Positions 3,788 through 45,667 of a stretch of DNA of 45,668 nucleotides are shown piece by piece. Both the position numbers and the translations under genes were made by a program. Each line of letters opens with the position of its first letter. Position 1 is the stretch's first letter. Source of the DNA: Candidatus Woesearchaeota archaeon (lineage in GTDB: Archaea; Nanobdellota; Nanobdellia; Woesearchaeales; GW2011-AR9); the NCBI GenBank assembly GCA_016214025.1, contig JACRPH010000006.1, positions 1 through 45,668 on the forward strand, in the 5' to 3' direction. The notes beneath the pieces were generated by a model. That model made no database searches. It had not been told where the DNA came from and worked only from the letters and a program-made list of their open reading frames with translations.

Positions 3788-6700
3788 TTACCTTCTCATC
3801 ACAATCAAAGCATAAATTGCTAATAGAAATATCAATATTCCTCCTAAGATATACAGCGCCTTTTCCCGCTTACTCACTTCACTGGCTTTTAGATCAGTAG
3901 TCCAGTTTACCGGAGTGATGTTTTTCTGCACCGCTTCTACCGGAGCAGCTGGAACCGCAGCCGTGCTTACGGTATTTGCTGCACTCTTAGGCGTTTCTGC
4001 TGGTTTGGCTGGTGTTGGTGCAGGAGTTGTCGTAGTGGTATTTACTACACAAGCGCTGCACGAGCCGCCGCAATCAACCTCACTTTCATCTCCATTCTTA
4101 GTTCCATCCGAACAAGAGATTACCGTAAAATTGTAAGTGTAATTTTTAGCATGAGTGGTAGTAAAGTTATCCATCGCTTCAAGGGTGAATGAATTACTTC
4201 CGGCACTTTTATAATACAGCTTAACTGAAGACAAATTAGAATAATCAAACAAAGTAGCATTGACTAATTGGGTTTTATCTTTGCCCAGATGCACCGTAGA
4301 AGAATAACTGACTGAAGTAATGGTGGGGGCTTGAGTGTCATTTACAACAACCGATAAATTTAGAATTACTGAAGTGGAATTATTTGAAATATTTAACGTA
4401 ACATTATAATTTCCCGTAACATTATATTGTTTGTTAATGGATAAGCTGGTTGCATTAGTTCCATCACCAAAGCCCCATAAATAAGTTAAGTTTCCAGTAA
4501 TATTGGTAGTGGCATTAAATAAGGTTGTATTTCCTACTTCTATAACTGTTTCATTAGTTCGCGGGGAAGTAATATTGTTAATCAATGAAGTTAGGTCTGA
4601 AGTAGTGTTAGTCGCATTAACAAAAATTACGCTTACATTTAAAATTCCTGATGAATTAACATTTCCAGCCAAATCATACGCATAGGCTTGGTAGTAAAGT
4701 GTAGTATTTGCGCTAAAAGTGTTAGCCATCAGAGTGTAATTGAATAAGCTGTCATTCTGTTGGCTCATGGAATAATTGCTCCAGTTGCCGCTATAATTCA
4801 AGCTGAATATTACTCCGGAAGAATTCAAATTCAAATCGCTTACATTGGCTCGGAAAGTGATGCTTTCATTGGTGTACAATGTTGCAGAGGTACAATTTAT
4901 ATTTAAAATCGAAGGAACAATAGTATCTATCATTATTTTATACTGCGTACTGCTATTTCCCCCTAAAGTATCGCTGGCAACAATGCTTAAAGTATAATTG
5001 CCATCACCTAAGCTGTTGTTCTGCTCTGGGGGAAGAGCACTAATTCCAAACGGATTTCCAGCAACAATTATCTGATGACTAAGGGAATAATTGGCGACGT
5101 TTAAACTTCCGCTGGAATTACTTAATACATTTAGTCCAGAACTGTTAGTAAAGTTATAAGTTAAAGATGAAATATTGGCTAGGCTGGAATTGGTTGAGTT
5201 TAAAGAGATATTTAATGCGAATGAAGCCCGATGGTAAGTATTATTTGCAGGAGAAGCGATTGTAAGCTGTATTGGTGTAGGAATAGATGTGGTGGTATAA
5301 TTAATGGTTACGGCTCTGGTTTCAGTGTATGCTTCAGTTAAGCTGTCATTTCCGTAAACGCGATAAGTGTAAGTGCCGCTATTTAATCCGGTTAAGTTGT
5401 AATAAAAGTTGGTGGAAGAATAATTAGTGAGAGTGTAATTGAAAGTGGTTGCATTGGCATTAGTCCAATCTAATCTAGCAGAAGATAATGGCACATCTGA
5501 AGTAACATTTATCCACAAACTATTTACGGAGATAACACTTCCATTAGCACTCATGCTGGAAGTAAAATTAATAATTGGCTTTACCGCAGCGAACACATCT
5601 ATCCTGGAAAAATTCAATCCTGAGCCCGTATCACTAATTACTTTTCCGGTTGCAGAGAACTTGCTTAATATTTGTGCGGGAGTTGGATTTGTTCCATACA
5701 CTGCTTTCCAATATTCTCTGAATAAAGCAGCAGCTCCCGCAGCATGAGGAGTAGCCATAGAAGTTCCGCTTAATGAAATCCAGCCCCCGTTAAGCGTAGT
5801 AGAATCAATGCCGGTTCCAGGCACCAGTAATTTCAGCAGGCTTCCTCGATTATATATTATGGCCTCATTTCCATCTGCTGCTCCTATAGGTATAGCATAT
5901 TGCACACAGGCAGGATTAGATATCCCGTCAGTCCATCCTGAATTTCCTGATGCGATGAACACGGATATATTTTTGGTGTAAGCTGCTGCTACTGCACTAG
6001 CAGTTAAATCTCCAGTGCAGTAACTCTGATAATGTACACAACTACTTCCGCTGCATCCTAAACTCATGCTGATAATGGAGATATTATATTTATTGGCATT
6101 CTGCACACACCAATCCATTCCGGCTACTACATCTGAAGAATGGCCTCCGCCGGCTGCACTTAATGCTTTAACTCCAATTAAATTTGCACCAGGAGCTACA
6201 CCCCGATAAGTATTGTTAGTGGAAGCAGCAATTCCAGCTACATGGGTCCCATGTCCATGGTCGTCTTTAGGATCAGCGTCGTTATTGTAAGTGTCCCATC
6301 CCCCAATGACTTTAGAACAGGAACTCCAATTCATAGTCGTATTAGTAGTGCCGTTAATCACTTGGTCAATATAAAATCCATAATCCGTAACTGAGCTATC
6401 GCTGACTAAGCGCACGTAAATTGTATCTCCAATTCCATGCGGAGTCCAGACATCAGTATCACTTTCTTTGTAGATAGCTAGAGTATTGTTGTTTTGGTCG
6501 TAAATGTAAATTCTATCCGTTGTATCTCCTCCGCTAGGCATGGCTTCCAGAGAGAAGTTAGCAAAGTGAACGGCTATGTTAGTATATCCGGATAAATTAA
6601 TCTTCCAGGTGTAATCCATGCTGTCATTATAGGGATGAGCAGATTCTACCGGTGTGGATAAATTAGCTACCGTTCCGCTTAATTGATAGGTTACCGGAGC

Positions 6701-7456
6701 GCATCCGCCTAACGCTGGATGAGTATAATCTATTCCGGTATCTACGATGCAGATAGTTTCACCAGAGCCGTCAATGGAATTGTTGTTTACGGAAAGGTTC
6801 CATACTAAAGTTGCGTTTATTCTGGGGACACTTTGGTCCAAGCTAACTTCAACTGGATAATCTAACAGAATCTGTTTGACTTTGTCGCTATTAACTAGCT
6901 CTGCTAGTGCTTCGGCAGTTTTTACTTCTCCAGCAAAAGCATTTACCGTGGAGAATTCTTGGGTAACTTCAAAATCGGCTTCCTGCTCCTGCATCTGGAT
7001 GATTTCACTTTCAGGTAAGGCTTCCTGAGCGATTCCTATGTTTAATTCTTCTTCTGAAGCAGTCCCTTCGGTGGTAATTATTTCCGGCTTTTCTTCCGGG
7101 GTTAACACTTCGACTTTGCTTTCCAGCTCAGCAATTACTTCCTGCTGTACTTCTTGGATGGCATCTTTACGCTGTTCTAAGTCAGCCGAAGTAGTTCCTA
7201 TGGTATCTTCTAATACGATTATAATTTTTGGCTCATTGTTTCCGGAGCGTATTTCCTGCACTAATTCTGGAGATAGTTTTTCGGTGCTGACTTTAGTTCC
7301 GCCTTCAAATACAACGTAGCCGGTTAAAGAATTATCTTCGTAATTGTTAACATAATCAGAATAGAACGCATAACCAAATAAAGCGCTAACTAGCAGGAAA
7401 CCTACCAGTATCTTCACATGCACCCAATTAACTTCGTCATCCATCTCTTTTTTCAA
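3788..7456 (-). CDS. S8 subtilisin-like surface protease with CUB-like insertion, Ig/PKD repeats, Cys-rich motif and C-terminal TM anchor
   Basis: Catalytic motifs VDTGIDYTHP, HGHGTHVAG, SGTSMATPH. PKD motif YLWGFGDG. Many N-x-S/T sequons. Hydrophobic segments at both termini. Confidence 0.92.
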   Translation of the reverse strand: MKKEMDDEVNWVHVKILVGFLLVSALFGYAFYSDYVNNYEDNSLTGYVVFEGGTKVSTEKLSPELVQEIRSGNNEPKIIIVLEDTIGTTSADLEQRKDAIQEVQQEVIAELESKVEVLTPEEKPEIITTEGTASEEELNIGIAQEALPESEIIQMQEQEADFEVTQEFSTVNAFAGEVKTAEALAELVNSDKVKQILLDYPVEVSLDQSVPRINATLVWNLSVNNNSIDGSGETICIVDTGIDYTHPALGGCAPVTYQLSGTVANLSTPVESAHPYNDSMDYTWKINLSGYTNIAVHFANFSLEAMPSGGDTTDRIYIYDQNNNTLAIYKESDTDVWTPHGIGDTIYVRLVSDSSVTDYGFYIDQVINGTTNTTMNWSSCSKVIGGWDTYNNDADPKDDHGHGTHVAGIAASTNNTYRGVAPGANLIGVKALSAAGGGHSSDVVAGMDWCVQNANKYNISIISMSLGCSGSSCVHYQSYCTGDLTASAVAAAYTKNISVFIASGNSGWTDGISNPACVQYAIPIGAADGNEAIIYNRGSLLKLLVPGTGIDSTTLNGGWISLSGTSMATPHAAGAAALFREYWKAVYGTNPTPAQILSKFSATGKVISDTGSGLNFSRIDVFAAVKPIINFTSSMSANGSVISVNSLWINVTSDVPLSSARLDWTNANATTFNYTLTNYSSTNFYYNLTGLNSGTYTYRVYGNDSLTEAYTETRAVTINYTTTSIPTPIQLTIASPANNTYHRASFALNISLNSTNSSLANISSLTYNFTNSSGLNVLSNSSGSLNVANYSLSHQIIVAGNPFGISALPPEQNNSLGDGNYTLSIVASDTLGGNSSTQYKIMIDTIVPSILNINCTSATLYTNESITFRANVSDLNLNSSGVIFSLNYSGNWSNYSMSQQNDSLFNYTLMANTFSANTTLYYQAYAYDLAGNVNSSGILNVSVIFVNATNTTSDLTSLINNITSPRTNETVIEVGNTTLFNATTNITGNLTYLWGFGDGTNATSLSINKQYNVTGNYNVTLNISNNSTSVILNLSVVVNDTQAPTITSVSYSSTVHLGKDKTQLVNATLFDYSNLSSVKLYYKSAGSNSFTLEAMDNFTTTHAKNYTYNFTVISCSDGTKNGDESEVDCGGSCSACVVNTTTTTPAPTPAKPAETPKSAANTVSTAAVPAAPVEAVQKNITPVNWTTDLKASEVSKREKALYILGGILIFLLAIYALIVMRR

Positions 7457-8070
7457 GAACAGGGAAAGAGGATAGGTATATAAAGGTTTGCGGGGGGTTT
7501 GCCACTATTTTTAATTAAATCCTGAACTAGAAACCAGTATAAGAACAATTCTTTCTCTATCTTTTGATGGTCGCAAAACTTCTTATTCACTATACCCCAA
7601 AACTTTTCGTTGTGCTTTCTTTCTTTTAGATGCATAACTTCATGATAAACAACATAATCAATTAATCTGTCTGGCAAATATTTTAGAAGAGTATTTATCG
7701 TTAAATTTTTTTGTGAACTACAACTAGCCCACTTAGAACTCATATTTCTAAAATTGACACCATTAATATTTAAATCGCATTCTAATAAAAAAAGATTGAC
7801 TTTATTCTTAACAATTTCTTTAAATTCTTCGGCAGTTCTATCCATTACTAACTTTTTATCTTTACTTTCTTTTAAAGAGGAGATAATTTCTGAGTTCTTT
7901 CTGTAAATCCAATTCTTATGCTTGTCAATCACCTCTTTATGATCTTTTGTGTTTTTTGGGAGAACAAGTAATAAATTTCCAGTTCTAAACTCTAAACGAG
8001 GATATCTAATATCTCTATAATCAACATCATATTCTACCTCCAAATCATAAATATTAATTTTCTTGTGCAT
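7453..8070 (-). CDS. YgjP/M48-like (DUF45) metal-dependent hydrolase
   Basis: KWASCS, YVVYHEVMHLKERKHNEKFW (HExxH...H..FW). Typical neighbour downstream of hsdR. Confidence 0.88.
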   Translation of the reverse strand: MHKKINIYDLEVEYDVDYRDIRYPRLEFRTGNLLLVLPKNTKDHKEVIDKHKNWIYRKNSEIISSLKESKDKKLVMDRTAEEFKEIVKNKVNLFLLECDLNINGVNFRNMSSKWASCSSQKNLTINTLLKYLPDRLIDYVVYHEVMHLKERKHNEKFWGIVNKKFCDHQKIEKELFLYWFLVQDLIKNSGKPPANLYIPILFPCS

Positions 8071-11000
8071 AGGCTTTCACACGGTCAATCAATTTAATAT
8101 ATAACTTGTTTAAATCTTCAAAACTTAAATTATATTTCTTAACATATCTTCGAATAAATTTTCTCAATGTTCTCTCTACATTCTTTTGTGCTGTTGGCTG
8201 TGAAATCCATCCACTAAACGTAACTTCTTTTAATTCTTCTGATAACTCTTTAATGTCGTTAGTAAAATCTTCTTCTTTGCTAAAGCAATCTTCTAGGACA
8301 AGAAGTAATGAATATTCTAGTTTGTTCAAACCTAATTCTTTTTGTCTTTGAGAAAGCTGCATAAATTCTTTAATTACTTTAATACCCTCCCTATATACTT
8401 TTTCATAATCTTTGGTTTTTTCTTTCCATAATTGCAGTAGTCTGAAAACTTTATCAGTTAAACTCTCTGAAACGGGATTTTTATGTTTATCAACAAGAAT
8501 AAATCGGTTAAGCGTAAAAACAATGTTCGCTGCTTTTTCTTCTTTGGTTTTAAAATGTTCTTCTAATTTTATAAAATAATCTTTATCAAACTCAATTAAT
8601 GGTAAAGATTTCTGAATTTCTTCAAGTTTGGTACTTTTATGAATAAACTTGATTGTTTTCTGAAAATATTTATTCACAAATCGATTATCTTGAGGTTGTT
8701 CTCTTAAAACCATCCTAGTATAATAGATATAAATTGCAGTTAGCCACTGGAAGTCAGAAAACTTCTCTGCTTTTATTGTATCTGGACCGAGTAATTCAAA
8801 TATTTTTTGAAGATGCTTATATTCCTCTACAAATTTCTTACTTTTTTCATCATCAGACGTCAATATCTCGATAGCTTTTAATAGGGTTTTGCGGTCGTAT
8901 TCATTCTTGGGAACGTCTTTAAACATCTCCAGTAATCCACTTAATATTCTGACAAAATCGTTTCTTAAATCATCCAAACTGAACAATGCTCCATTTATCT
9001 CCTCTTTGCTATAAATCTCAAATGCTCTCTTAAATTCTTTCAAAATTCCCATGTAATCAATAATTAAGCCCGCTTCCTTAACGTTTTTATAGGGCCTATT
9101 TGTTCTTGCAATTGCCTGAAGTAATCTATGCTCTTTTAGAGGCTTATCCAGATACATCGTCTGTAATACTGGAGCATCAAATCCAGTAAGAAGCATATCT
9201 GTTACAATAAGAATTTTAGGAAGTTCTTCCTCTTTATACTTTTCAATTACATCTTTCTTAATTTCCTCATAGTCTTTTCCATATTTAGCAGTTGATTCCT
9301 TAACATACCATTGAGTTATTTGAGGTTCTTTTCTCGTTAATCCGTAACTCATAACAATCTCAGAATATTGTGGAGGAAGATGTTTGTCTAATTCTTTTTT
9401 GTAGTTTACGCATGCTTCTCTATTCACAGCTACAACCATCGCTTTAAACTTTCCATTAACATTCTCTTTGAAATGCTCAGCAATATTTTCTGCTATTTTA
9501 GCAATTCTTTCTGGGTTTTCCAAATAGGCTTTCATCCAATTAATCTTTTTCTTCACACTTTCTTTAACATCTTCTCTAATATCTTCTGGAAGTTCGTCGT
9601 ATTCTATCTCTAAGAATGCATCCAGCATTTCTTTCTTCAAATGAACTTCTTTTTCTAATCTCGCTTGATAAGCAATTTTTACGGTAAAGCCGTCATTAAT
9701 AGAATCGGTAATGAAATACTTATCCAGATATTTTTCTTCAGGCGGATAGCTGAAAACTTCATAAGTATCTACTCCTAGTTTTGGCTTAGAGATGGGAGTT
9801 CCGGTAAATGCAAAGAAAAAAGTATTTCTTAATATGGAACGCATCTGTGCTGCAAGTGTTCCGTATTGTGTTCTGTGGCCCTCATCAATAAATGCTACAA
9901 CATTTCTTCGAGTGAGAATTGTTTCTTGCTTTTCAGACATCTTCTCAAGTTCTTTTCTTAAAGAATCTAACTCTTCTGGCCTAAACTTATGGATTAATGT
10001 AATAAAGATACCTCTTTTACCTTTCCCATTGCCATGTAGAATCATTCTTTGCATTTCATTAACCGAACTAATAATTTCAGGTAATGTTAAATCCAGAGCG
10101 GTGAATTCTTCATAAAGTTGTCTTTCTAAATCCTGCCTATCAATAATTAAAAATAGTGACGGATTTTCTAGTACTTCAGAGCGATAGAGCTTATTTGCTG
10201 CAAAAATCATTTCTAATGTTTTTCCTGATCCTTGCCAATGCCAGATTAACCCTTTGTCTTTCGGTTCTTTTCCTTTGATATGATTTACTACCCTACTCAC
10301 TACTTTGTTTACTGCCCTATATTGCATATATCTTGGCAGAACTTTGGTGGCTTCTCCAGATTCTATTCTATAAAAGAGGAAATTATTAATGATATCTAAC
10401 AATTGATGAGGAGTAAATAATTCAATGGTTGAATCTATTGAATCTTTCTCAAATTCTTTCCACTCGCTCGTCTTTACCTCTTCCTGCCATGGAATTATCG
10501 GAAAGTATTTCGCAATCTGCTCAGCAGCTACCCCAATTTGAACATACTTATATAATTCTGGAACATCTTGCTCATAGCTTTTGATTTGTTTGTAAGCATC
10601 AAACCAATTCTCGGAAAAACCCGCTGGATTTTTACATTCAATATCCACTAATGGAATTCCATTAACATAAAGTATGATGTCTGTTCTAATTTCTTTATTT
10701 CCTACGGTGTAAACTGCTTGTCTTGTTACAATAAATTCATTATTTTGGATGTTATGATGATCAAACAGTTTTATTTTTCGTAATGTCCTATCCTTTTCCA
10801 ACTTAATAGGAATTCCTTCTTTGAAGAATTGAAGAATCTGTTTAATTCCTTCTGGCGAACTTGGCTTGAATTTAAGTTCGTTTATTACAGTGTTGATATC
10901 CGCATCTGACATATCAACCAAGTTAATTTCCTTAATCTTTTGGATTAAATTTCTGAGGAGTAATGGTTCTTCAAAGCTGGCTCTATCTAGCTCTTTAGCC

Positions 11001-11080
11001 GGCACAAAAATCCAGCCTTTCTTTCCAAGCTGTTCAATAATGTAGTCTTCAACTACTGATTTTTCTGTGAAGCGGGGCAT
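8054..11080 (-). CDS. hsdR: Type I restriction enzyme, R subunit
   Basis: RTDIILYVNGIPLVDIECKNP nuclease motif, WHWQGSGKT, DEGHR, FTGTP, MLLTGFDAP, QAIARTNR. Confidence 0.96.
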   Translation of the reverse strand: MPRFTEKSVVEDYIIEQLGKKGWIFVPAKELDRASFEEPLLLRNLIQKIKEINLVDMSDADINTVINELKFKPSSPEGIKQILQFFKEGIPIKLEKDRTLRKIKLFDHHNIQNNEFIVTRQAVYTVGNKEIRTDIILYVNGIPLVDIECKNPAGFSENWFDAYKQIKSYEQDVPELYKYVQIGVAAEQIAKYFPIIPWQEEVKTSEWKEFEKDSIDSTIELFTPHQLLDIINNFLFYRIESGEATKVLPRYMQYRAVNKVVSRVVNHIKGKEPKDKGLIWHWQGSGKTLEMIFAANKLYRSEVLENPSLFLIIDRQDLERQLYEEFTALDLTLPEIISSVNEMQRMILHGNGKGKRGIFITLIHKFRPEELDSLRKELEKMSEKQETILTRRNVVAFIDEGHRTQYGTLAAQMRSILRNTFFFAFTGTPISKPKLGVDTYEVFSYPPEEKYLDKYFITDSINDGFTVKIAYQARLEKEVHLKKEMLDAFLEIEYDELPEDIREDVKESVKKKINWMKAYLENPERIAKIAENIAEHFKENVNGKFKAMVVAVNREACVNYKKELDKHLPPQYSEIVMSYGLTRKEPQITQWYVKESTAKYGKDYEEIKKDVIEKYKEEELPKILIVTDMLLTGFDAPVLQTMYLDKPLKEHRLLQAIARTNRPYKNVKEAGLIIDYMGILKEFKRAFEIYSKEEINGALFSLDDLRNDFVRILSGLLEMFKDVPKNEYDRKTLLKAIEILTSDDEKSKKFVEEYKHLQKIFELLGPDTIKAEKFSDFQWLTAIYIYYTRMVLREQPQDNRFVNKYFQKTIKFIHKSTKLEEIQKSLPLIEFDKDYFIKLEEHFKTKEEKAANIVFTLNRFILVDKHKNPVSESLTDKVFRLLQLWKEKTKDYEKVYREGIKVIKEFMQLSQRQKELGLNKLEYSLLLVLEDCFSKEEDFTNDIKELSEELKEVTFSGWISQPTAQKNVERTLRKFIRRYVKKYNLSFEDLNKLYIKLIDRVKAYAQEN

Positions 11081-11081
11081 T

Positions 11082-11663
11082 TTATTTTTCAATCACCCAG
11101 TATCTTGTTCTGCCGTCAATAAACCGTTCCATTAACTCTTTGTTTATCTCTTCTATCTCAAAATAATTAGGATCAAAATCCTCACCCAGCCATTCTTTAA
11201 TTAACTCTTTATATTCTGGATGATTCTTATTCCGGCGAACATGAAGAAGTCGGTAATACCCCCCAATCCCCCCGCAATCATCAGGCGGACAGGATAATTT
11301 TCCTTTAATACATACTGGATGAGGAAGCCCCATTTCATTTGGTTCTATTTTTTCTACGATGATCTGATGCTCCCAACAGTCACCAAAATCGTAGGTATAG
11401 TCAAACTTTTGGCTCGGCTTTAATGTACTAATCCTGATTTTTCTTGAATCCATTAACTTATCATCCCAATCAAAATATTTGGGGACTGATAGCCGCTGTC
11501 CATCAACCTGAAAGTCATACAAATGGGAATTCGTCCATCCCATCACTACCTGAAATATTTCATGGAGTTTATGAAATGAGATATTATCTTTTATTTTTAT
11601 TCTTCTCCAGATGGGCGGTTGAGAATCCCGCAAGGTTATTTTTAATTGCATTATGTTTGGCAT
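11082..11663 (-). CDS. Plasmid pRiA4b ORF-3 family protein
   Basis: PPIWRRI, LHEIFQVVMGWTNSHLYDF, YTYDFGDCWEH, CPPDDCGGIGGY. Confidence 0.9.
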   Translation of the reverse strand: MPNIMQLKITLRDSQPPIWRRIKIKDNISFHKLHEIFQVVMGWTNSHLYDFQVDGQRLSVPKYFDWDDKLMDSRKIRISTLKPSQKFDYTYDFGDCWEHQIIVEKIEPNEMGLPHPVCIKGKLSCPPDDCGGIGGYYRLLHVRRNKNHPEYKELIKEWLGEDFDPNYFEIEEINKELMERFIDGRTRYWVIEK

Positions 11664-16524: not shown

Positions 16525-16666
16525 TTTGTAGCTATAAAACACAACTACTATTTAAATGTTACTAATTAAATAAGTGTATTTTGTAAAGTACTTATCTAAT
16601 TTTAATAGCAACCCCTCTATGAAACTAAAAATTCCGTTTGGGTAGAGAAACAGCGATTGCATACGT

Positions 16667-19600
16667 TTATGGGAAAGGATAGGCATTCTTCCGGTGTTTA
16701 CTCGCTTTTTTCTTTCTGCGATGCATTTTCACTAGGACCAACACCAAACCAATAACTATTACCACCTCTAAAACATACTTCCAGGTGATCCATTGGGTAA
16801 TGCTTTTCCAAGAAGAGGTATTCTTGTCAGCTGAGCCTAACGCTTCATTTACAGTTAAAGGGGTTATGCCGATTTTGAATTCTGTAGAAGTATTGGAAGC
16901 ATTAATTGCGTCTAACGCTGATGAAGCCACGCTTTCATTAACTTTTTCTTCTACTGCCACTTTCTGTTCCGGTATCGCTTCATGAATCTTTTGAATGGTA
17001 AGGTTTGCTTTAACTGCAGTGATGTTTATGCTATTTAATTTTGCTTTTATATCATAATAACTGTCATCATCCAGCTCAAATTTCATCTCTTCTCCAATGG
17101 ATAATAATACTTTGTAAACTTTGCTGGTCACATTGAAGCTGGCTGATACCGAAGTCATGCTTTCCATAGTTAGATAATGCTCTTCGTTACTAATAGAAAA
17201 TTTCATCTTGTCGCCTTTGCTTAAAGTGTTGGTGTATCCGGTAGCTAATTGGGCATCATTGATTACATACGTTGTTCCTCCAGTTCCGCCTCCGCCACCC
17301 CCGCCGCCTCCGCCGGAGCTGCTAGGTGAGCTGGGGCAGGCACTGCACGAGCCGCCGCAATCTGTTCCTGCTTCATTTCCATTTTGGATGCTATCTGAAC
17401 ATGAAGTAACGCTGAAATTATAAGTTGAAGAATTGGTGTGCGTAGTAGTGAAATTGTCAGTATAATTTAAAGTGAAATTGTACGAGCCAACCGTTAAATC
17501 ACTTATGCTCCAATTACAGTTCCAGGTGGTATTGGTTGTGGTGCAGCTTCCGTTGAAGAGAGTTCCATTGAAATCCAGAGTAAAGTTAGATATTCCAGAA
17601 TAGTCGTGAGTGGTGCTATTTATACTTAAAGTGCTTCCATCTTGCTGCAGGTGTAATTCGGTGTCGTAAGTTGGAGATGAAATAGTGGGTGGTTTAGTGT
17701 CATTAATAATTACAGTTATGTTGGTTAAATTTGAACTGTAACCATCAGAGACGTTTAGAATAACGATGAAGCTTCCTGTTGAATTAAATGAGTGAGTTGT
17801 GTTTTGTTCGGTAACTAAAGAAGTATTATCACTGAAGTTCCAGTAGTAAGTTAAAGTATCGTTGTCTAAATCAGTAGCAGTAGCATTAAAAGAGGTGGAG
17901 TTGCCTACTTCAATTACAGAATTGTTAATCGGAGCAGTAATGTTCAGGGCAAATGGAATTCTATTTTGTACCGTAAAATTGTAAGTGGCAGATGTGTTGA
18001 TGTTTCCAGCCAAATCCGCGGCATTAAACTTGTACGCGATATTTCTCTGATTAGTTAGATTGGATGTGCCAGTTAAAGTGAAGTTAAAAGTGATATTATT
18101 TTCATTATTCATAGAATAGTTAGTCCAGTTAGTGGAGAAGTTTGATTCAAAATAAACTGCGGAGGTGTTTAGGGCATAATTGTCGGTTACGTTTATTCTA
18201 AAAGTGATGGAATCATTGTTGTAAACGGTGCTAGGGTGGAGGCTGAGGTTTATTATGCTGGCAGCAGTTTTGTCTACGGTAAATATTACTGATGAGGTAG
18301 CAGAATTGCCTAAAGTATCATTGACGAATACAGTTAGGGTGTAGTTTCCATCGGAGAAGGTGGAGTTGGATAAATTAACTAAATCCGTCCAAGTAAAGCT
18401 GGTGGCGAGTATCGAATTATTAGTGTTAGTTTGTAGAGTTGTATTGGTAGAGTTGATAATAGAATAATTGGAAAAAGATAATTGTAAATTGGTGAGAGAG
18501 ACATTTAGATTTAAGGCTTGTCGATAGTAAGAAAGGTTAGTCGGAGTGTAAAAAGTAATATTCGGTGCAGTCTGGTCTACGACGATTAATCTGGTTTCGC
18601 TTACTCCAAACGTTCCGGCTGAATCATTCCCATATACTCTGTAAGTGTAATTAGTTGTGGTTAACCCAGTCATGTTGTAATAGAAGCTAGTAGCATTGCT
18701 GGAATTCATGGTAAAATTAGCCGGTGTTCCATTATTCCATTCCAGTAACGCTGTAGAAAGATTTACGTCAGAAGTTATGTTTATCAAAGTGTAAGTTGCA
18801 GTGATAGTGGTAGCATTGGCTGGGCTGGAAGAGGTGAAGTTGATGAATGGCTGGATGGCGGCAAGGATATCAATTCTAGGGAAAGTAATCCCATTTCGTG
18901 TATCGTTTATTCTTACCCCCGTAATTTTCAATTTGTTTTCTATTTGCTGTGGAGTGATGTTAATATTATATGCTGCTTTCCAGTACTGTTTCAGCAATGC
19001 TGCAGCTCCGGCTACGTGGGGGGCAGCCATGGATGTGCCGCCTTCAGTGCCATAAGTATTACTTAGAACTGTTGAGTATATCTGCGCACCAGGAGCAAGC
19101 AAATCTAATATATTTCCAGAGTTAGTAAAACATGAGATTTGATCTGCTGCAGTTGAACCATCTGTGCAAGCACTCCAAGCAGCAATTCCAACATTTGCAT
19201 CATATACTGATCCAACCGAAGTAACATTTGAAGCACATGCTGGTGAGCCTATCCCTGAACTATTTGCGGCATTTCCAGCAGCAACATCAACAAAAATTCC
19301 TTGGCTCGCAGCATAATTAGTGGCATTAGCTAGTGGACGATCATCACAGTAAGAAGTAGAGATAAATTCGTAGGGACACCCCTGTGTTGGATGGCATTCT
19401 CCTAAGCTCAGAGTTATTACAGAAATGTTAAACAAAGTTTTATTACTTACGCACCAATCTATTCCCGCAATAGCATCATCAGTACTACCTGAACCATTAT
19501 TTGCAAACACTTTCAAAGCCACAATTTTTGCTCCGGGTGCGACTCCTCGATAAGTATTATTTTCAGAAGCAATAATTCCTGCTACATGTGTACCATGACT

Positions 19601-20272
19601 GTTTACATCCATCGGATTCGAATCATCATTACCAAAGTCATATCCTCCAATCACCTTACTACAGCTTCCATTTAAAAAACTAGTATTAGTACATCCTCCT
19701 AAAGCTGGATGGGTATAATCTACTCCCGTATCGATAACACAAACGGTTTGTCCAGTTCCATTAATGCTAGTCCCATTTACAGAAATATTCCAAACCTGGT
19801 TTGCTTTAATTAACGGCACGGATTGAATAAGATTTATTTTTATTGGTTTTACTGGTCGAATTTTTTCTATCAAGTCTGATTTTACTAACTTCTCTAACCC
19901 TTTCTTCGTTACTCTTCCCGAAAATCCATTAATAATAGAATAACGATGTTTTAAATCAATATCATAATCCTCCGCAGAAGCAATTCCTAAACCACCAACT
20001 TTATCTCGTTTTCTCACTCTTAACTCACCTAAAACGTCATCCTGCACTTCGCTTATCATCGCCTTCCTTCGGGAGAATTCATCTGTTGCAGAAGCAATTC
20101 CTAATCTTTTCTCTGGAAGTGGCTGGTCTTTCAATACAATGATTACAGAAACCTCATCTTGGGAATTTAATGCATCTAGAACTTCTTGGTCGATGGTTGC
20201 AGCAAAAGCAAACGTAGTTAAAACTAAGAATACCACTAATAATACGACTATCAAATACCCTCTTTTATTCAT
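16667..20272 (-). CDS. S8 subtilisin-like surface protease (paralogue of 3788-7456) with signal peptide, propeptide, Ig/PKD repeats and TM anchor
   Basis: IDTGVDYTHP, NSHGTHVAG, GGTSMAAPHVAG, YYWNFSD, SCSDSIQNGNEAGTDCGGSC, poly-Gly linker, C-terminal TM and basic tail. Confidence 0.93.
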   Translation of the reverse strand: MNKRGYLIVVLLVVFLVLTTFAFAATIDQEVLDALNSQDEVSVIIVLKDQPLPEKRLGIASATDEFSRRKAMISEVQDDVLGELRVRKRDKVGGLGIASAEDYDIDLKHRYSIINGFSGRVTKKGLEKLVKSDLIEKIRPVKPIKINLIQSVPLIKANQVWNISVNGTSINGTGQTVCVIDTGVDYTHPALGGCTNTSFLNGSCSKVIGGYDFGNDDSNPMDVNSHGTHVAGIIASENNTYRGVAPGAKIVALKVFANNGSGSTDDAIAGIDWCVSNKTLFNISVITLSLGECHPTQGCPYEFISTSYCDDRPLANATNYAASQGIFVDVAAGNAANSSGIGSPACASNVTSVGSVYDANVGIAAWSACTDGSTAADQISCFTNSGNILDLLAPGAQIYSTVLSNTYGTEGGTSMAAPHVAGAAALLKQYWKAAYNINITPQQIENKLKITGVRINDTRNGITFPRIDILAAIQPFINFTSSSPANATTITATYTLINITSDVNLSTALLEWNNGTPANFTMNSSNATSFYYNMTGLTTTNYTYRVYGNDSAGTFGVSETRLIVVDQTAPNITFYTPTNLSYYRQALNLNVSLTNLQLSFSNYSIINSTNTTLQTNTNNSILATSFTWTDLVNLSNSTFSDGNYTLTVFVNDTLGNSATSSVIFTVDKTAASIINLSLHPSTVYNNDSITFRINVTDNYALNTSAVYFESNFSTNWTNYSMNNENNITFNFTLTGTSNLTNQRNIAYKFNAADLAGNINTSATYNFTVQNRIPFALNITAPINNSVIEVGNSTSFNATATDLDNDTLTYYWNFSDNTSLVTEQNTTHSFNSTGSFIVILNVSDGYSSNLTNITVIINDTKPPTISSPTYDTELHLQQDGSTLSINSTTHDYSGISNFTLDFNGTLFNGSCTTTNTTWNCNWSISDLTVGSYNFTLNYTDNFTTTHTNSSTYNFSVTSCSDSIQNGNEAGTDCGGSCSACPSSPSSSGGGGGGGGGGTGGTTYVINDAQLATGYTNTLSKGDKMKFSISNEEHYLTMESMTSVSASFNVTSKVYKVLLSIGEEMKFELDDDSYYDIKAKLNSINITAVKANLTIQKIHEAIPEQKVAVEEKVNESVASSALDAINASNTSTEFKIGITPLTVNEALGSADKNTSSWKSITQWITWKYVLEVVIVIGLVLVLVKMHRRKKKASKHRKNAYPFP

Positions 20273-39328: not shown

Positions 39329-39721
39329 TTAATACAACTCTAAATTTAGCCCTCTTATCCTAGAAAAATCTTTAACATTACGGGTTAGCACGATTTCATT
39401 CTTAATCAATGCAATGCCTGCAATCATGCAATCTATGACATCTATACCTTTTCCGTCTTTTATCAAAGAGCCATCAATTTCTCCGCCTTTCTCGGCAGAG
39501 TCAGAATCCAAGTGCACTACCAATTGTCCACCCAACGTTTTCATGATTTTGTTTCTTTCTTCTACCGGCTTATTACATCTTGCTAACCCGCTAAATAATT
39601 CAAATATGGTTAAAGCAGTTACCGACTGTGGCTCATTCCTTCTAATTAATTCCTGCAATTTTGCTACTGCTCTTTCATCATTATGCATCAAATCGATTAT
39701 AAAAGCAGTATCAGCAATCAT
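39329..39721 (-). CDS. vapC: PIN-domain (VapC) toxin
   Basis: MIADTAFIID, TIFEL, DCMIAGIAL, TRNVKDF. Confidence 0.92.
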   Translation of the reverse strand: MIADTAFIIDLMHNDERAVAKLQELIRRNEPQSVTALTIFELFSGLARCNKPVEERNKIMKTLGGQLVVHLDSDSAEKGGEIDGSLIKDGKGIDVIDCMIAGIALIKNEIVLTRNVKDFSRIRGLNLELY

Positions 39722-40026: not shown

Positions 40027-40800
40027 TCAACTTGTCGTCATCTCTAGTTCTTGTGCTATTTTTATGAGATCCAGTAATCTATTTTCTCCCAGCGGCAGCA
40101 TTAATTCTGCGCTCTCTGCGGGGGTTCTTTCATGAAGCATACTGTGCGGATTGACATAATTGTGCAGTACTTTGCACAGTGTCGAGGTTGCCTGCGCTCC
40201 CTCATGTGTTTGAAACACATTCAGCGCATCAAATCTTCTGCTCGGTTCTCGATTGTGTCTTTCCACAGCATTGTTATTATGCTTTAATCCAAATTTTTTA
40301 CAAGCAATAGGCACACCAAACTTCATTTTGGTGATTCTGTAAAATAATTTTTTCCATACAGCCTTGTAATTTCCAAATTTATCGGAGACGAACACAATTA
40401 TTTTTCTTTTTTCCACTGGCTTTTTCAATTCTTGCTCATACTGTTCCAGCATCTGCTGATAACACCACTTTTTAATTTGCTCAAGGAAAGCTACACATAC
40501 TTTCAATGTTCGTTTTATGACGACAATTTCCGCAAGAACAAACTTTGTTTTACTATCAATAGCAGTCAGCCGATATTCCCAATGATTTTTTACTCTGGTG
40601 TATTTTTCATCAAAATGGATACGCCCCTTAATCTTTGGAGTACCGAATTTCGGCTCGTTTTTTTTAAGAGATGGGTGTACTTAATCAGCCATTTCCTTAT
40701 CGCCCATCGAGTTACTTTAACACCATCATGTTGCTTATCTTTATAAATAAACCACTGCACCAAGAAAACAGCCTTTCCTTAAGTGGGAATAGCAGTTGAA
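40027..40800 (-). mobile_element. Degenerate IS1/IS6-like DDE transposase with a -1 frameshift site; 5' part decayed
   Basis: HTH fragment QHDGVKVTRWAIRKW, an A8C slippery run (40657-40665), then -1 frame IHFDEKY..AIDSKTK..VSD..NNNAVERHN..YVNPH..TPAE. Confidence 0.78.
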
Positions 40801-42381: not shown

Positions 42382-42693
42382 ATGGCACAACGGGCAAGAA
42401 TCAAGCTGGCGAGTACGGATATTGATAAGATTAATCAAATCTGCGGCGACATTAAGGATATTGCTGAGAAGACTGGAGTAGAATTGAAAGGCCCGATTCC
42501 ATTGCCTACCAAGAAACTTAAAGTTACCACCCGAAAATCTCCCTGCGGGAATGGAAAAGCCACCTGGGAGCGCTATGAGATGCGGATTCATAAACGATTG
42601 ATTGATTTGAGTGCTGATGAGAGAACGCTTAGGCTGGTGATGAGGGTGCCGATACCTGAAGGGCTTAACATAGAAATTGAGATGGTGGGGTAA
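42382..42693 (+). CDS. rpsJ: 30S ribosomal protein uS10
   Basis: GPIPLPTKKLKVTTRKSPCGNG, MRIHKRLID. Conserved tuf-rpsJ synteny. Confidence 0.97.
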   Translation: MAQRARIKLASTDIDKINQICGDIKDIAEKTGVELKGPIPLPTKKLKVTTRKSPCGNGKATWERYEMRIHKRLIDLSADERTLRLVMRVPIPEGLNIEIEMVG

Positions 42694-42701
42694 GATAATC
42701 A

Positions 42702-42950
42702 TTAATTGTTACTTAAAATTTCTTCTAACCTTATTCTGTAACCTACCACTCTTGCTAGTTCTTTTGAAATTCCTATTTTTTGACAAAACTTTGAAAACCA
42801 ACGATTATTATCATAACATCTAACAAGAGTTTTGATATCTTCTACCTCTTTATGCCTTGCCTCTCGGTAAAATCTCTCAACTTCTTTAGAATAAATTCTA
42901 TCTCCTTCATACTTCGCTGCCATCATTTTTCCACTAAAATATTGAAACAT
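42702..42950 (-). CDS. Hypothetical protein
   Basis: 82-aa AT-rich ORF with no recognised motif. Confidence 0.5.
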   Translation of the reverse strand: MFQYFSGKMMAAKYEGDRIYSKEVERFYREARHKEVEDIKTLVRCYDNNRWFSKFCQKIGISKELARVVGYRIRLEEILSNN

Positions 42951-43086
42951 ATACTCTTAATTTAACCTGTTTTAATAAACTTTATGAAAGATTTAAACTA
43001 TGTTCTACGAACTATATATCACATATGCCAAAGTTTAATAAATTAGTGAGCATAATAAACTGAAATCAAAGATAGGGGGTGTTAAA

Positions 43087-43386
43087 ATGGACAGGAAAAG
43101 TCCTTCCGAATTGGGGGATTTATTGGATCAAATAGATGCTGCACCATTATTGTATGTTAGTAATGATAACATTCCGTACGAAGGTTCTTTTGGTGCTTGT
43201 GTAAGTTGTGGTGGAAAATGTTATAACGGGTGTAAAGCAACAACCGTCTCAGAAATAGAATATAACCTTCCGAACAGACAACCTTCCTTAGATAGGCAAC
43301 AACAGGGTGATAGGGAGAAGATGAATGAGCGCACTAACTTGGATGAGAAAACTGAACGAACACCTCCTTACTCAACAAAAAAGTGA
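43087..43386 (+). CDS. Putative RiPP precursor peptide (leader / Cys-Ser-Gly core / follower)
   Basis: GGGGGTG SD and upstream TTTAATAAA. Core GSFGACVSCGGKCYNGCKATTVS. Lies directly upstream of, and overlaps, ycaO. Confidence 0.7.
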   Translation: MDRKSPSELGDLLDQIDAAPLLYVSNDNIPYEGSFGACVSCGGKCYNGCKATTVSEIEYNLPNRQPSLDRQQQGDREKMNERTNLDEKTERTPPYSTKK

Positions 43387-44572
43387 TCTTACATCATTAG
43401 TTGAACAATTACTGGTCTTACCGATAACAGGTAAATTACAGAAAACTCGTCCATTTAATGATGAGCCTAAATTTATTCAGTATTTCTGCTTGAATGAAGG
43501 AAGATCAGAAGAAGATACAGGTAGCGGGATATTTTTTAATGATGAGATAGCAAAGTTAAAAGCTTTAGCAGAAACCGTGGAGAGATCTGCTTTAGGAGAA
43601 GTTCCTTTAGAACTCCCTTACACCACATATCTCCGGTTAGGTTGTTCTGCAGTAAATCCGTTCTTATGGCATAATTATTCACAAGTTAACGATTTATCAA
43701 CTATACAAAATACACCCCATTTGCCAACTCATTGGACAAAAGCCAAAAACCTTCTTACAAACCAAGAGGTTTTAGTTCCGACGCAATTAGTATATGTACC
43801 CTACACTTTTAGGAAAGAAGAATTAATGCTTTGTGATCCTGTAAGTACGGGAGCAGCTTTTGGTACCTCTTGGGAAGATGCAGTGAAAAGAGGGATACTG
43901 GAATGTGTTGAGCGCGATGCCTTTATGATTAGATATTTTAAGAAAGATAAAGTTCCTCGAGTTACGCATCCAGTAATAGAAGAACTTTCCTCTTATTTTG
44001 CAAGATATCAATTGGAACTGAATATTTTTGATCTTACTAATGATTTAGATATACCTGTAATGTTAGGAATAGTTATAGATAAAACAGGGATAGGTCCAGC
44101 AGTTTCAGCAGGGTTAAAAGTTGATGAAAATCCACTTAATGCCGCGCTTGGAGCAATGCTGGAGGCTCAACATGTAAGGTCCTGGATTAGATTTTCCTAT
44201 CATGCCCAAGGAAAGCCACAAATCCACAATCCGTCTCAAATTATAGATTTAAAGACACGCGGTTTCTATTGGTATGACTTGAGTATGATAAAGCATCTCG
44301 ATTTTCTATTAGAAAACTCAGAAATCAAAGAGATAAGCGGTGAATCATCAAAAGTTAGTTTTAATTTTCTTCTTCAATTATTAAAAGACAAAGAGTATCA
44401 TGTCTTTGGTGTAGACATTAGCCCAGAAATTCCAATAGGCACTGTTGCTAAAGTGCTGATTCCTGAACTGCAACCACTCCGATTGGTTGAATCTCCAGAT
44501 ATTTACACAAGTAAAAGACTTTACGAAAGAGGCATATCAAATTTAAACTCAATTCCCCACCCTTTCACATGA
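43325..44572 (+). CDS. YcaO-family ATP-dependent cyclodehydratase
   Basis: AETVER, STGAAFG, ILECVERDAF, MLEA, C-terminal PHPFT. Confidence 0.93.
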   Translation: MSALTWMRKLNEHLLTQQKSDLTSLVEQLLVLPITGKLQKTRPFNDEPKFIQYFCLNEGRSEEDTGSGIFFNDEIAKLKALAETVERSALGEVPLELPYTTYLRLGCSAVNPFLWHNYSQVNDLSTIQNTPHLPTHWTKAKNLLTNQEVLVPTQLVYVPYTFRKEELMLCDPVSTGAAFGTSWEDAVKRGILECVERDAFMIRYFKKDKVPRVTHPVIEELSSYFARYQLELNIFDLTNDLDIPVMLGIVIDKTGIGPAVSAGLKVDENPLNAALGAMLEAQHVRSWIRFSYHAQGKPQIHNPSQIIDLKTRGFYWYDLSMIKHLDFLLENSEIKEISGESSKVSFNFLLQLLKDKEYHVFGVDISPEIPIGTVAKVLIPELQPLRLVESPDIYTSKRLYERGISNLNSIPHPFT

Positions 44573-45309
44573 ACGACAAAATCAAAAAGTTTTACGAAGA
44601 AGTAACTTCCTCATCCAATCAGTTACCTCTCTCTCCCGATACATGGCCAGAAGAATGGATTAAAGTTTTCTGGAAGACTTACCCCCGACTTCCTCAAGTA
44701 CCTCTAATAAACACAGAACTAAACCTACAAAAAAAGTTACAATCAGTTCTTCTTGGGAGAGAATCATCAAGAGATTATAATACACCAATAAATTTTTTGG
44801 AATTATCTGCTTTATTAAATTTTTCTGCAGGATTAAATGGAAAAGGAAGTAAAGAACAACCAAGAAGAACTTATCCTTCCGCAGGAGCCCGCTATCCTAT
44901 AGAATTATATATTTTCTCAGCAGAGATAGATGGACTGGACAATGGAGCTTATCATTACAATGTTAAACAGAATACTTTAGAATTACTTATTTCGGGAGCG
45001 GTTGATGAAAATATCAATACTATTCTTAAAACTCAACATGAAGATATGTTCAAGAAATTATCCGCCCTGGTTATTTTTACGACAGTTATCTCTCGAACAC
45101 AAATTAAGTATGGTTCATCAGCTTATCCTTTGTCTTTGATAGAATGCGGACATATTGCCCAAAATATATATCTTGTCTCTGAAAATCTAGGGTTGCGATG
45201 TTGTGCCATTGGTGGTTTTGATACACAACATACTTCCGATATACTCGATTTGACAGAAGAAGAGCTGCCTTTATATGGGGTGGTAATCGGAAAATTTAGA
45301 CTTTACTAA
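44569..45309 (+). CDS. SagB/ThcOx/McbC-like FMN-dependent azoline dehydrogenase
   Basis: RESSRDY, RTYPSAGARYPIELY, KY motif (IKYG), ECGHIAQN, IGGF. ATGA overlap with ycaO. Confidence 0.92.
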   Translation: MNDKIKKFYEEVTSSSNQLPLSPDTWPEEWIKVFWKTYPRLPQVPLINTELNLQKKLQSVLLGRESSRDYNTPINFLELSALLNFSAGLNGKGSKEQPRRTYPSAGARYPIELYIFSAEIDGLDNGAYHYNVKQNTLELLISGAVDENINTILKTQHEDMFKKLSALVIFTTVISRTQIKYGSSAYPLSLIECGHIAQNIYLVSENLGLRCCAIGGFDTQHTSDILDLTEEELPLYGVVIGKFRLY

Positions 45310-45667
45310 ACGAAATTAGATTGGAATCATTCCTAAGAATAGCATCTAAAAGAACTGCTCCGATTACATAATATTTATCCTCAGCGTGTGGCCAAGGGTC
45401 AACAATTTGGAATAAATCATCTTTATACCCACAAATGACTACTACATGCCCATAAGGTTGCCCTTTGATATCATCTGGCTTCCAGCATTTTTCTTCCAGA
45501 AAATAACGTTCTCTCGGAGCATTAACTAGTAAAGTATAACAAACTCCCGCAATTAAAGGGTTATGCTGATCTAACTGACTTTTTATTAATTTCTCACTAA
45601 TTGGAGTAAAAACGATTTTTCCACCATTTTCTAAGAAGGAAACGGCTGCCTCAGCATCCTCTCTAAA
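45296..45667 (-). CDS. 3' part of a peptidase C39-like protein (start lies beyond the window; absent from the ORF track)
   Basis: Manual translation ...QHNPLIAGV...DDIKGQPYGHVVVICGYKDDLFQIVDPWP...SKV*. His and Asp motifs of the C39-like fold. The catalytic Cys is outside the window. Confidence 0.75.
   Translation of the reverse strand, partial: FREDAEAAVSFLENGGKIVFTPISEKLIKSQLDQHNPLIAGVCYTLLVNAPRERYFLEEKCWKPDDIKGQPYGHVVVICGYKDDLFQIVDPWPHAEDKYYVIGAVLLDAILRNDSNLISFSKV

Follow-up and report, generated by a model that had tools for sequence, protein, structure and literature searches.

The window analyzed here, a 45,668-nt stretch of DNA that constitutes the entire contig C83 (JACRPH010000006.1) of a Candidatus Woesearchaeota archaeon, ends in a compact gene cluster that encodes a small Cys-rich peptide, a YcaO-domain protein, a SagB-type flavin mononucleotide (FMN) dehydrogenase, and a C39-like peptidase, the last of which continues onto contig C11 next to a gene for a major facilitator superfamily (MFS) transporter. 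The cluster is probably a compact, horizontally acquired cassette for a linear azole-containing ribosomal peptide (LAP), also referred to as the thiazole/oxazole-modified microcin (TOMM) type. Among the features sought for a LAP assignment, we find a YcaO of apparently azoline-forming type with Glu/Arg motifs and a Pro-rich C terminus, an adjoining SagB-type FMN dehydrogenase with a Lys-Tyr motif, and an adjacent precursor with a leader and a Cys/Ser/Thr-rich core. An E1-like or ThiF-like leader-binding partner, separate or fused, is missing, and none is encoded in the insertion that carries the cluster.

Organization of the gene cluster

The open reading frames (ORFs) that a first-pass annotation had described between positions 43087 and 45667 are all found in the ORF list. 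The precursor gene (43087–43386, + strand; 99 aa) has a Shine-Dalgarno-like run, GGGGGTG, 6 nt ahead of its ATG and is preceded by a non-coding stretch (42972–43086, + strand) that is conserved with the related cassette of metagenome contig L027 (the blastn alignment starts at 42972) and presumably holds the promoter. It is followed by ycaO (43325–44572, + strand; 415 aa; PF02624, E = 4e-45) and sagB (44569–45309, + strand; 246 aa). The annotation had called all three genes translationally coupled, which stands for ycaO and sagB, with a classic overlap of 4 nt, but not for the precursor ORF, which overlaps ycaO by 62 nt and forms no stop-start junction with it. The convergent C39-like gene is present as described: its open-ended ORF (45296–45667, − strand), which encodes the C-terminal 123 residues, overlaps sagB tail to tail by 14 nt.

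The remainder of the peptidase gene lies on contig C11. The final 141 nt of C83 are identical to the end of C11, and we joined the two contigs because of this end overlap and because of their colinearity with L027. On C11 (numbered as locus L003), the N-terminal part of the peptidase occupies 17732–18205, and the MFS transporter gene (16529–17704) is located 27 nt upstream of it on the same strand, such that the peptidase is transcribed together with the MFS gene and separately from ycaO-sagB. The cluster does lie directly after tuf-rpsJ, as had been stated, whereas its description as an AT-rich block overstates a mild difference (GC content of 0.365 for the cluster, 0.393 for the genome, and 0.44 for tuf-rpsJ). 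The host was correctly recognized as a DPANN-type archaeon; a genome of the same class (G179, with locus L018, the same as L111) is Nanoarchaeota, and the tuf product is of the archaeal elongation factor 1-alpha type, judged by eye from its ORF translation rather than by a family scan. The host genome is 1.43 Mb in size and 97% complete.

The precursor peptide family

Relatives of the cluster were collected by scanning metagenome and genome collections, which gave 104 loci, 93 of them non-identical, from bacteria of the Candidate Phyla Radiation (CPR) and from DPANN archaea. A single-protein query of the genome contigs returned no relative; the six-row alignment A2 was the query that worked. 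Many of the contigs behind the 93 loci are short, such that absences within 4 kb of ycaO make the counts given below lower bounds on presence.

In each of the nine other genomes of the phylum that have a YcaO of this family, sagB lies directly 3′ of ycaO, and in eight of the nine a small Cys-, Gly/Cys-, or Ser-rich ORF is found within about 600 nt upstream of ycaO on the same strand. Seven of these eight ORFs can be aligned with the precursor of the window; the two exceptions among the nine genomes are L025, without any such ORF, and L024, with a Ser-rich one. The alignment reveals three parts: a shared leader motif (residues 11–23 in this alignment; the conserved leader is delimited as residues 8–23, nt 43108–43155, in the window), a core (Cys38–Cys49, nt 43198–43233), and a short follower. 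In the window, a follower motif takes up residues 60–70, and the tail is poorly conserved and overlaps ycaO. The core contains four cysteines, Cys38, Cys41, Cys45, and Cys49, in the pattern Cys-x-Ser-Cys-Gly-Gly-x-Cys-Tyr-x-Gly-Cys, with Ser40 within it and Thr52 and Thr53 just beyond.

A profile built from 11 of these peptides was searched against 1.84 billion representative proteins and gave 36 matches at E ≤ 1e-3. Thirty-three of the matches are proteins of 48–110 aa that show the leader, a near-fixed Cys-rich core, and the follower. The other three are long proteins (713, 784, and 1,649 aa), which were set aside as multi-stretch hits; alignment A5 leaves them out together with P0161. The core motif occurs in only 6 of the 7,738 ORFs of at least 25 aa in the 93 related loci, and all six are located upstream of ycaO on its strand. 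A hidden Markov model of A5 matches 9 of the 93 loci, although six of the nine ORFs are rows of A5 or near-identical to them and hence are not independent. The precursor matched no family in Pfam or NCBIfam. The closest relatives, L027, L029, P0143, and P0144, share the longer follower motif that corresponds to residues 60–70, and the five closest precursors have Gly-Ala, Gly-Gly, or Val-Ala just ahead of the core. As in the window, the precursor tails run into ycaO, by 70 nt in L027 and 55 nt in L029, and it is the YcaO frame that is conserved there. Judged from these sequences, the 99-aa ORF is a real precursor and a member of a conserved family, with 33 small relatives and a core motif tied to its position at ycaO, which bears out the candidate put forward in the first-pass annotation.

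The precursor of locus L023 (8524–8901, − strand; 125 aa) has one leader followed by three near-identical core-plus-follower repeats, an arrangement like that of the multi-core cyanobactin precursors.

YcaO and SagB

The type of YcaO was judged from model scores and from profile E-values against the Protein Data Bank (PDB) in place of a tree with reference clades. Among the NCBIfam models, the SagD family model TIGR03604 gives the best score, 175.7 bits, which is below its curated cut-off of 219.25, followed by TIGR03266 (77.4 bits) and TIGR00702 (36.2 bits). The closest solved structures are the cyanobactin heterocyclases TruD (8.8e-35), MusD (9.2e-33), and LynD (1e-32), followed by the thioamidating MJ1094 (2.4e-28), Escherichia coli YcaO (1.8e-12), and McbD (6.1e-7). 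Residues E83, E86, R87, E193, E196, R197, D198, and F414 are invariant in 37 homologues, and P411, H412, and P413 of the C-terminal PHPFT sequence are nearly so. We take the Glu/Arg motifs to be the ATP/Mg-binding motifs of azoline-forming YcaOs and the PHPF sequence to be their Pro-rich tail; the retention of both had been noted from the sequence of the window and holds across the family. A further motif near the N terminus, R42–F50, is specific to this family. The alignment with LynD covers residues 348–775 of that enzyme alone, which correspond to its YcaO domain and therefore leave no room for a fused leader-binding domain, and fused ThiF-YcaO proteins are distant (24–26% identity; four matches). 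Together, the sequence comparisons support the assignment of this protein as an azoline-type cyclodehydratase that consists of the YcaO domain only, in agreement with the azoline-type YcaO and SagB dehydrogenase pair originally proposed.

The dehydrogenase scores 130.5 bits on the SagB model TIGR03605 (cut-off 78.4) and matches PF00881 (E = 2.5e-17). Its Lys-Tyr motif, which the first-pass annotation had also pointed out, is well conserved among 81 sequences, with K180 kept in 94% and Y181 in 100%. In addition, SagB has a conserved N-terminal extension, with P27, K36, Y38, P39, and R40, that lies outside the curated models. A sagB homologue is found within 4 kb of ycaO in 80 of the 93 loci, and the scan located this YcaO family in many metagenome-assembled genomes of Patescibacteria.

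In genome G143 of the same class (contig C14, 1360–2019 and 2019–2498; loci L013, L016, and L026), YcaO is encoded in two frames as pieces of 255 and 161 aa, which represents a frameshift or a broken gene; sagB, the precursor, and a DUF2268 peptidase are intact in this genome.

The cluster is part of an insertion at rpsJ

The 4,559 nt that follow the rpsJ stop codon hold an 82-aa ORF, the precursor gene, ycaO, sagB, the peptidase gene, and the MFS gene; a 144-nt direct repeat that corresponds to the 3′ end of rpsJ flanks them on both sides. The left copy (42550–42693, + strand) is the last 144 nt of the intact rpsJ; the right copy lies just past the MFS gene on contig C11 (L003 16339–16482, reverse strand) and is followed by a DUF2283 gene, a 105-aa ORF, and the gene for the CCA-adding enzyme. 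By local alignment the copies agree at 132 of 144 positions and at 103 of the first 104, and both encode the same 47 residues and stop codon. A genome of the same genus (G196) lacks the cluster; there, the CCA-adding enzyme gene lies about 1 kb past tuf-rpsJ. As to which copy is native, the last 40 nt of the two agree with G196 at 30 and 33 positions, respectively. The cluster thus shows two features looked for in a mobile element: close kin lack the insertion, and direct repeats of the target flank it.

The same five genes are present in L027, whose YcaO is 65% identical to that of the window, with different flanks. Homology to L027 begins 115 nt ahead of the precursor, ends about 50 nt past the MFS start, and is confined to this span. 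Because the 4,559-nt insertion is absent in G196 and because L027 shares with it the segment from precursor to MFS gene only, the five genes represent one transferable, probably horizontally acquired cassette, and the peptidase therefore belongs with ycaO-sagB. The distribution of the YcaO family in the phylum is patchy: it was found in 11 of 400 other sampled genomes, in none of 42 from the same family, and in neither of the two from the same genus.

The 82-aa ORF (42702–42950, − strand) lies inside the insertion and outside the cassette held in common with L027, from which it is absent. It has no assigned function, matches no Pfam family, and gave weak helix-turn-helix-like leads in an Atlas structure search. 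An NCBIfam match to the endopeptidase MepK (E = 0.087) is far below cut-off and was taken as chance.

Just upstream of tuf, a 159-aa ORF (40027–40506, − strand) gives a weak match to the C terminus of an IS481-family transposase (E = 0.0018, far below cut-off) and may be a transposase remnant.

Peptidase and transporter

Read across the overlap of C83 and C11, the peptidase is a stand-alone protein of about 232–235 aa. On PF13529 (cut-off 24), its N-terminal piece scores 27.3 bits, its C-terminal piece 22.2 bits, just under the cut-off, and the L027 ortholog 41.5 bits; scores on PF03412 (cut-off 22), 13.2 and 18.4 bits, are below cut-off. In place of a PF03412 match and a fusion to an ABC transporter, as looked for in a C39 peptidase, we thus find a stand-alone protein beside an MFS gene. 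A papain-like fold in which the catalytic Cys and His are joined by Gln and Asp is predicted in a model of the L027 ortholog (predicted local distance difference test score, pLDDT, of 93.7), the window's own protein being divided between two contigs. Foldseek matches of this model range from the C39-like structure 3erv (E = 1.3e-5) to the ComA peptidase domain (8.4e-3), with template modeling (TM) scores for the query of about 0.41–0.49, and the best PDB matches further include PeiR, the PCAT1 peptidase domain, and the double-glycine protease LahT. All four homologues that cover the Gln, Cys, His, and Asp positions align there; in alignment A6, His and Asp show no variation, and each of the eight rows that extend to the Gln and Cys columns has these residues. 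The MFS protein bears a weak resemblance to drug:proton antiporters.

It is conceivable, albeit unlikely, that the C39-like peptidase and the MFS transporter have another job, such as peptide turnover and efflux, and that the leader is cut by an unlinked protease or not at all. The two genes constitute a convergent transcription unit of their own, cell-wall hydrolases are among the members of the broad PF13529 family, and PeiR is one of the best fold matches; furthermore, among the 93 loci the peptidase recurs in just four, L027, L028, L033, and L116, and the MFS gene in one. In those four loci, however, the gene always adjoins ycaO-sagB, convergent after sagB in L027 and L028 and divergent before ycaO in L033 and L116 (the latter with its precursor 3′ of sagB), such that the peptidase has remained adjacent through rearrangement. 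The peptidase family is also very small, with nine proteins at E ≤ 1e-3, and other peptidases occupy the same place in other loci: M16 peptidases in 15 of the 93, DUF2268 proteins in four, and an HExxH protein of about 185 aa in four. The first-pass annotation had allowed for the C39-like gene belonging to a separate, unrelated operon; instead, it lies within the same 4.56-kb insertion and recurs with the other four genes between the different flanks of L027. We therefore retain the peptidase and the transporter as parts of the azole-peptide cassette.

The HExxH protein flanks ycaO-sagB, usually as two paralogues, and belongs to no Pfam or NCBIfam family. Its genes are located at 473–1021 and 3013–3531 of L018, 2696–3250 and 202–762 of L020, 7921–8502 and 5381–5926 of L023, 3415–4026 and 7011–7616 of L120, and 8298–8903 of L019. 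CPR bacteria commonly encode this family, for which Atlas structure searches gave weak leads to zincin-like peptidases.

Absence of a linked partner protein and predicted leader docking

In most characterized LAP pathways, YcaO requires an E1-like or ThiF-like partner, and the minimal cluster comprises a precursor, a YcaO, mostly with such a partner, and a dehydrogenase (PMC7136475). The same review notes stand-alone YcaOs from bottromycin biosynthesis and omits stand-alone YcaOs from its own mining (PMC7136475). Here, neither an E1-like nor a TfuA gene was found in the window or the adjoining contig C11, and TfuA is absent from the whole host genome as assembled. The genome has one YcaO and one ThiF-family gene, which is located on another contig (C65) and is of the housekeeping type, with 230 bits on a general ThiF model and 39 bits on the SagC model TIGR03603 (cut-off 187.65). 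The lack of a linked E1, ThiF, or TfuA partner that had been noted from the window alone thus extends to its continuation on C11.

How the leader may be recognized was modeled by predicting the complex of YcaO, SagB, and precursor residues 1–72, each with its own alignment. The three runs score 0.83, 0.71, and 0.83, compared with 0.00 for the best of three controls; the mark applied to such scores is attained by 58 of 80 solved complexes and by 2 of 110 mismatched pairs, and a pass counts as no proof. The runs share at least 40% of their contacts, with a pLDDT of 39–43 for the partner. In the confident contacts, precursor residues 8–23 face YcaO residues 42–46, 49, 290, and 293–294 and SagB residues 27–29, 34–39, 133, 173–179, and 229–232. 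The contacts at YcaO 42–49 and SagB 27–39 coincide with the N-terminal motifs that are specific to these families and contain invariant or near-invariant residues, so that the conserved leader is predicted to sit between the N-terminal motifs of the two enzymes. We are aware of no solved structure in which a leader occupies a comparable YcaO/SagB N-terminal site, and in our judgement memory of training structures is for that reason an unlikely source of the model.

The candidate precursors of the related loci, of otherwise differing types, were also compared for their leaders. A motif defined post hoc (acidic residue or Asn, Ala or Thr, an optional residue, Pro or Glu, and a hydrophobic residue) is present in 20 of 49 candidate precursors, compared with 226 of 6,878 other small ORFs. 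A narrower first pattern, found in 9 of the 49 and in 89 of the 6,878, missed obvious cases. A shared leader motif would fit one common mode of recognition.

An azole peptide could also be produced with leader binding supplied by an unlinked protein, either the ThiF-family enzyme of the genome or some unrecognized protein. The partner requirement of most characterized LAP YcaOs (PMC7136475), the ThiF-family gene on C65, and a SagC-like (E1-like) gene within 4 kb of ycaO in 8 of the 93 loci all speak for this arrangement. The remaining 85 loci show no partner within that distance, the C65 protein scores far from the SagC model, a mobile five-gene cassette that relied on a host gene would transfer poorly, and the predicted complex seats the leader on YcaO and SagB themselves; we regard an unlinked partner as quite improbable and favor recognition by the two cassette enzymes.

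Proposed pathway

In the proposed pathway, the 99-aa precursor would supply the leader (residues 8–23), the Cys-rich core, and the follower. YcaO would use ATP to cyclodehydrate Cys residues of the core, and possibly Ser/Thr, to azolines, and the SagB-type FMN enzyme would oxidize these to azoles. With no E1-like or ThiF-like partner, the leader is predicted to dock in a groove formed by YcaO residues R42–K49 and SagB residues P27–R40. The cytoplasmic C39-like peptidase would then trim the leader close to the Gly-Ala ahead of the core, and the product would be exported by the MFS transporter that is co-transcribed with the peptidase. We infer azole formation from the enzyme types, and an antagonistic role is the leading guess for the function of the product. 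The Gly-Ala, Gly-Gly, and Val-Ala sequences ahead of the core are suggestive only as a site of C39-type cleavage.

Several observations weigh against this reading. For the cluster and its close relatives, chemistry, expression, and activity are predictions from sequence. The best YcaO model is matched below its curated cut-off, and the count of leader motifs is post hoc. The docking model is a three-chain prediction outside the calibration of the tool, obtained with custom alignments and with low confidence for the fold of the peptide. Any Cys-rich small ORF upstream of ycaO occurs in 39 of 78 loci, compared with 26% of random windows; because this crude test gave weak enrichment, we relied on homology and on the specific core motif. 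The C39-like and MFS genes are rare among the related loci, and three of the loci with a C39-like gene are close kin of the window. No integrase or recombinase is present among the six ORFs of the insertion. With respect to processing, a heterocyclized Cys38 would make a cut directly after Ala37 chemically impossible, which leaves the cleavage site uncertain, and the long follower fits no assigned step in the pathway.

A broader proposal can be put forward tentatively, and with more doubt than conviction. CPR bacteria and DPANN archaea may share a minimal two-enzyme azole synthetase that lacks both an E1-like partner and the recognition element (RRE) of pathways for ribosomally made peptides that are modified after translation (RiPPs). 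A leader of the type Asp-Ala-x-Pro/Glu-hydrophobic might be read by a composite site made up of an FNDEPKF-type strand of YcaO and a K-x-Y-P-R sequence of SagB. The near-invariant core might give rise to one conserved poly-thiazole, used by episymbionts against bacteria or hosts and spread as a cassette.

The remaining alternative, that YcaO carries out thioamide or amidine chemistry or acts on a large protein such as the neighboring ribosomal protein while the small ORF is an unmodified Cys-rich metal-binding peptide or no gene at all, is highly improbable: YcaOs that make thioamides and amidines do exist (PMC7136475, PMC8442711), the McrA-thioamidation model scores 77.4 bits, and the cluster adjoins tuf-rpsJ, but the genome lacks TfuA, a SagB-type dehydrogenase, coupled here through a 4-nt overlap and paired in 80 of 93 loci, acts only after azoline formation, the rpsJ position is that of an insertion absent in kin, L027 has other flanks, and the small ORFs make up a conserved family whose linkage to ycaO is constant.

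Comparison with known systems

Sharrar et al. (2020) predicted a LAP cluster in a CPR genome that consists of a YcaO, a nitroreductase, a peptidase, and an 84-aa precursor, and in 93 further CPR genomes they reported 110 clusters of this type; the nitroreductase is located beside YcaO in 89 of these clusters (PMC7298704). YcaO-type RiPP clusters in DPANN archaea have been counted in surveys, which list them without analysis in the portions concerned (PMC12144867, PMC12153355). The CPR clusters resemble the present one in their YcaO beside a nitroreductase-family dehydrogenase, their peptidase, their short Cys/Ser-rich precursor, and their ultra-small host (PMC7298704). The present cluster differs in its archaeal host, its C39-like peptidase and MFS exporter, and its distinct, conserved precursor family. 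The main account of the CPR clusters gives no leader-recognition mechanism or product, and its supplements may list archaeal or C39-type clusters (PMC7298704). In the literature that could be searched, the core motif strings were not found in any paper, nor was the combination of YcaO, nitroreductase, and Nanoarchaeota. The first-pass annotation considered the cluster notable in a reduced-genome lineage; the cluster itself is real, but it is less rare than this suggests, given the 93 further CPR genomes (PMC7298704) and 11 of 400 genomes of the phylum. In light of the 2020 predictions, it no longer comes as a surprise that an ultra-small organism has a cluster of this type. New here are a conserved family of precursors, a cassette inserted at rpsJ, the variant with a C39-like peptidase and MFS transporter, and a testable model of leader recognition without a partner.

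TruD, LynD, and MusD, the best solved relatives of the YcaO domain (9e-35 to 1e-32), align in the Pro-rich tail and in the Glu/Arg motifs. These enzymes, about 780 aa long, carry an E1-like domain fused at the N terminus together with a leader-binding RRE, neither of which the YcaO of the window has. The microcin B17 synthetase McbBCD and the klebsazolicin and phazolicin systems likewise combine a linear Gly/Cys/Ser-rich core with a YcaO, a SagB-type dehydrogenase, and dedicated export. The E1-like leader-binding scaffold McbB has no equivalent in the present cluster, McbD matches distantly (6.1e-7), and the window, unlike these partner-dependent LAP systems, contains neither a McbG-type nor an Erm-type immunity gene. 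The stand-alone YcaOs of bottromycin biosynthesis, compared by description only, are similarly partner-less and act on a precursor with a follower peptide (PMC7136475), whereas that actinobacterial pathway lacks an N-terminal leader and employs two YcaOs together with a P450 in place of SagB. ComA, LahT, and PCAT1, double-glycine (C39) leader peptidases of PCAT/AMS transporters, share with the peptidase a papain-like fold with Gln, Cys, His, and Asp, and the putative substrate here has Gly-Ala or Gly-Gly before its core. The present peptidase differs from them in that it is stand-alone, about 90 residues larger, paired with an MFS transporter instead of being fused to an ABC transporter, and a match to PF13529 rather than PF03412.

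A gene for an Erm-type 23S rRNA methyltransferase is found within 4 kb of ycaO in 5 of the 93 loci (L050, L057, L064, L067, and L122). In L050 (2630–3511) it sits between ycaO and sagB and scores 229 bits on NF000499 (cut-off 212); the label of the other four is by BLAST clustering with the L050 member only. Such a gene would fit self-protection from a ribosome-directed product, perhaps one similar to phazolicin; the window has no such gene.

The prevailing view is that azole-forming YcaOs, a few excepted, depend on an E1-like or ThiF-like protein to hold the leader. If the partner-less model is true, a widespread pair of enzymes would offer a more compact and more easily transferred means of installing thiazoles and a second way of reading a leader. 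It would also mean that archaea with 1.4-Mb genomes, presumed to be host-dependent, invest in a secreted, modified peptide gained by gene transfer, which would bear on competition and host interaction among DPANN archaea and CPR bacteria. With the precursors, the predicted docking residues, and the limits of the cassette in hand, the model is directly testable in E. coli.

Other features of the window

No tRNA genes were found in the window. Its first 60 nt (1–60) recur at the ends of contigs C43 and C62, from which we conclude that the assembly graph branches at the window start. Elsewhere, the window encodes a pair of PKD-domain subtilases, each about 1,200 aa long (3788–7456 and 16667–20272, both − strand), a type I restriction R subunit (8054–11092, − strand), and a PIN-domain protein (39329–39721, − strand).

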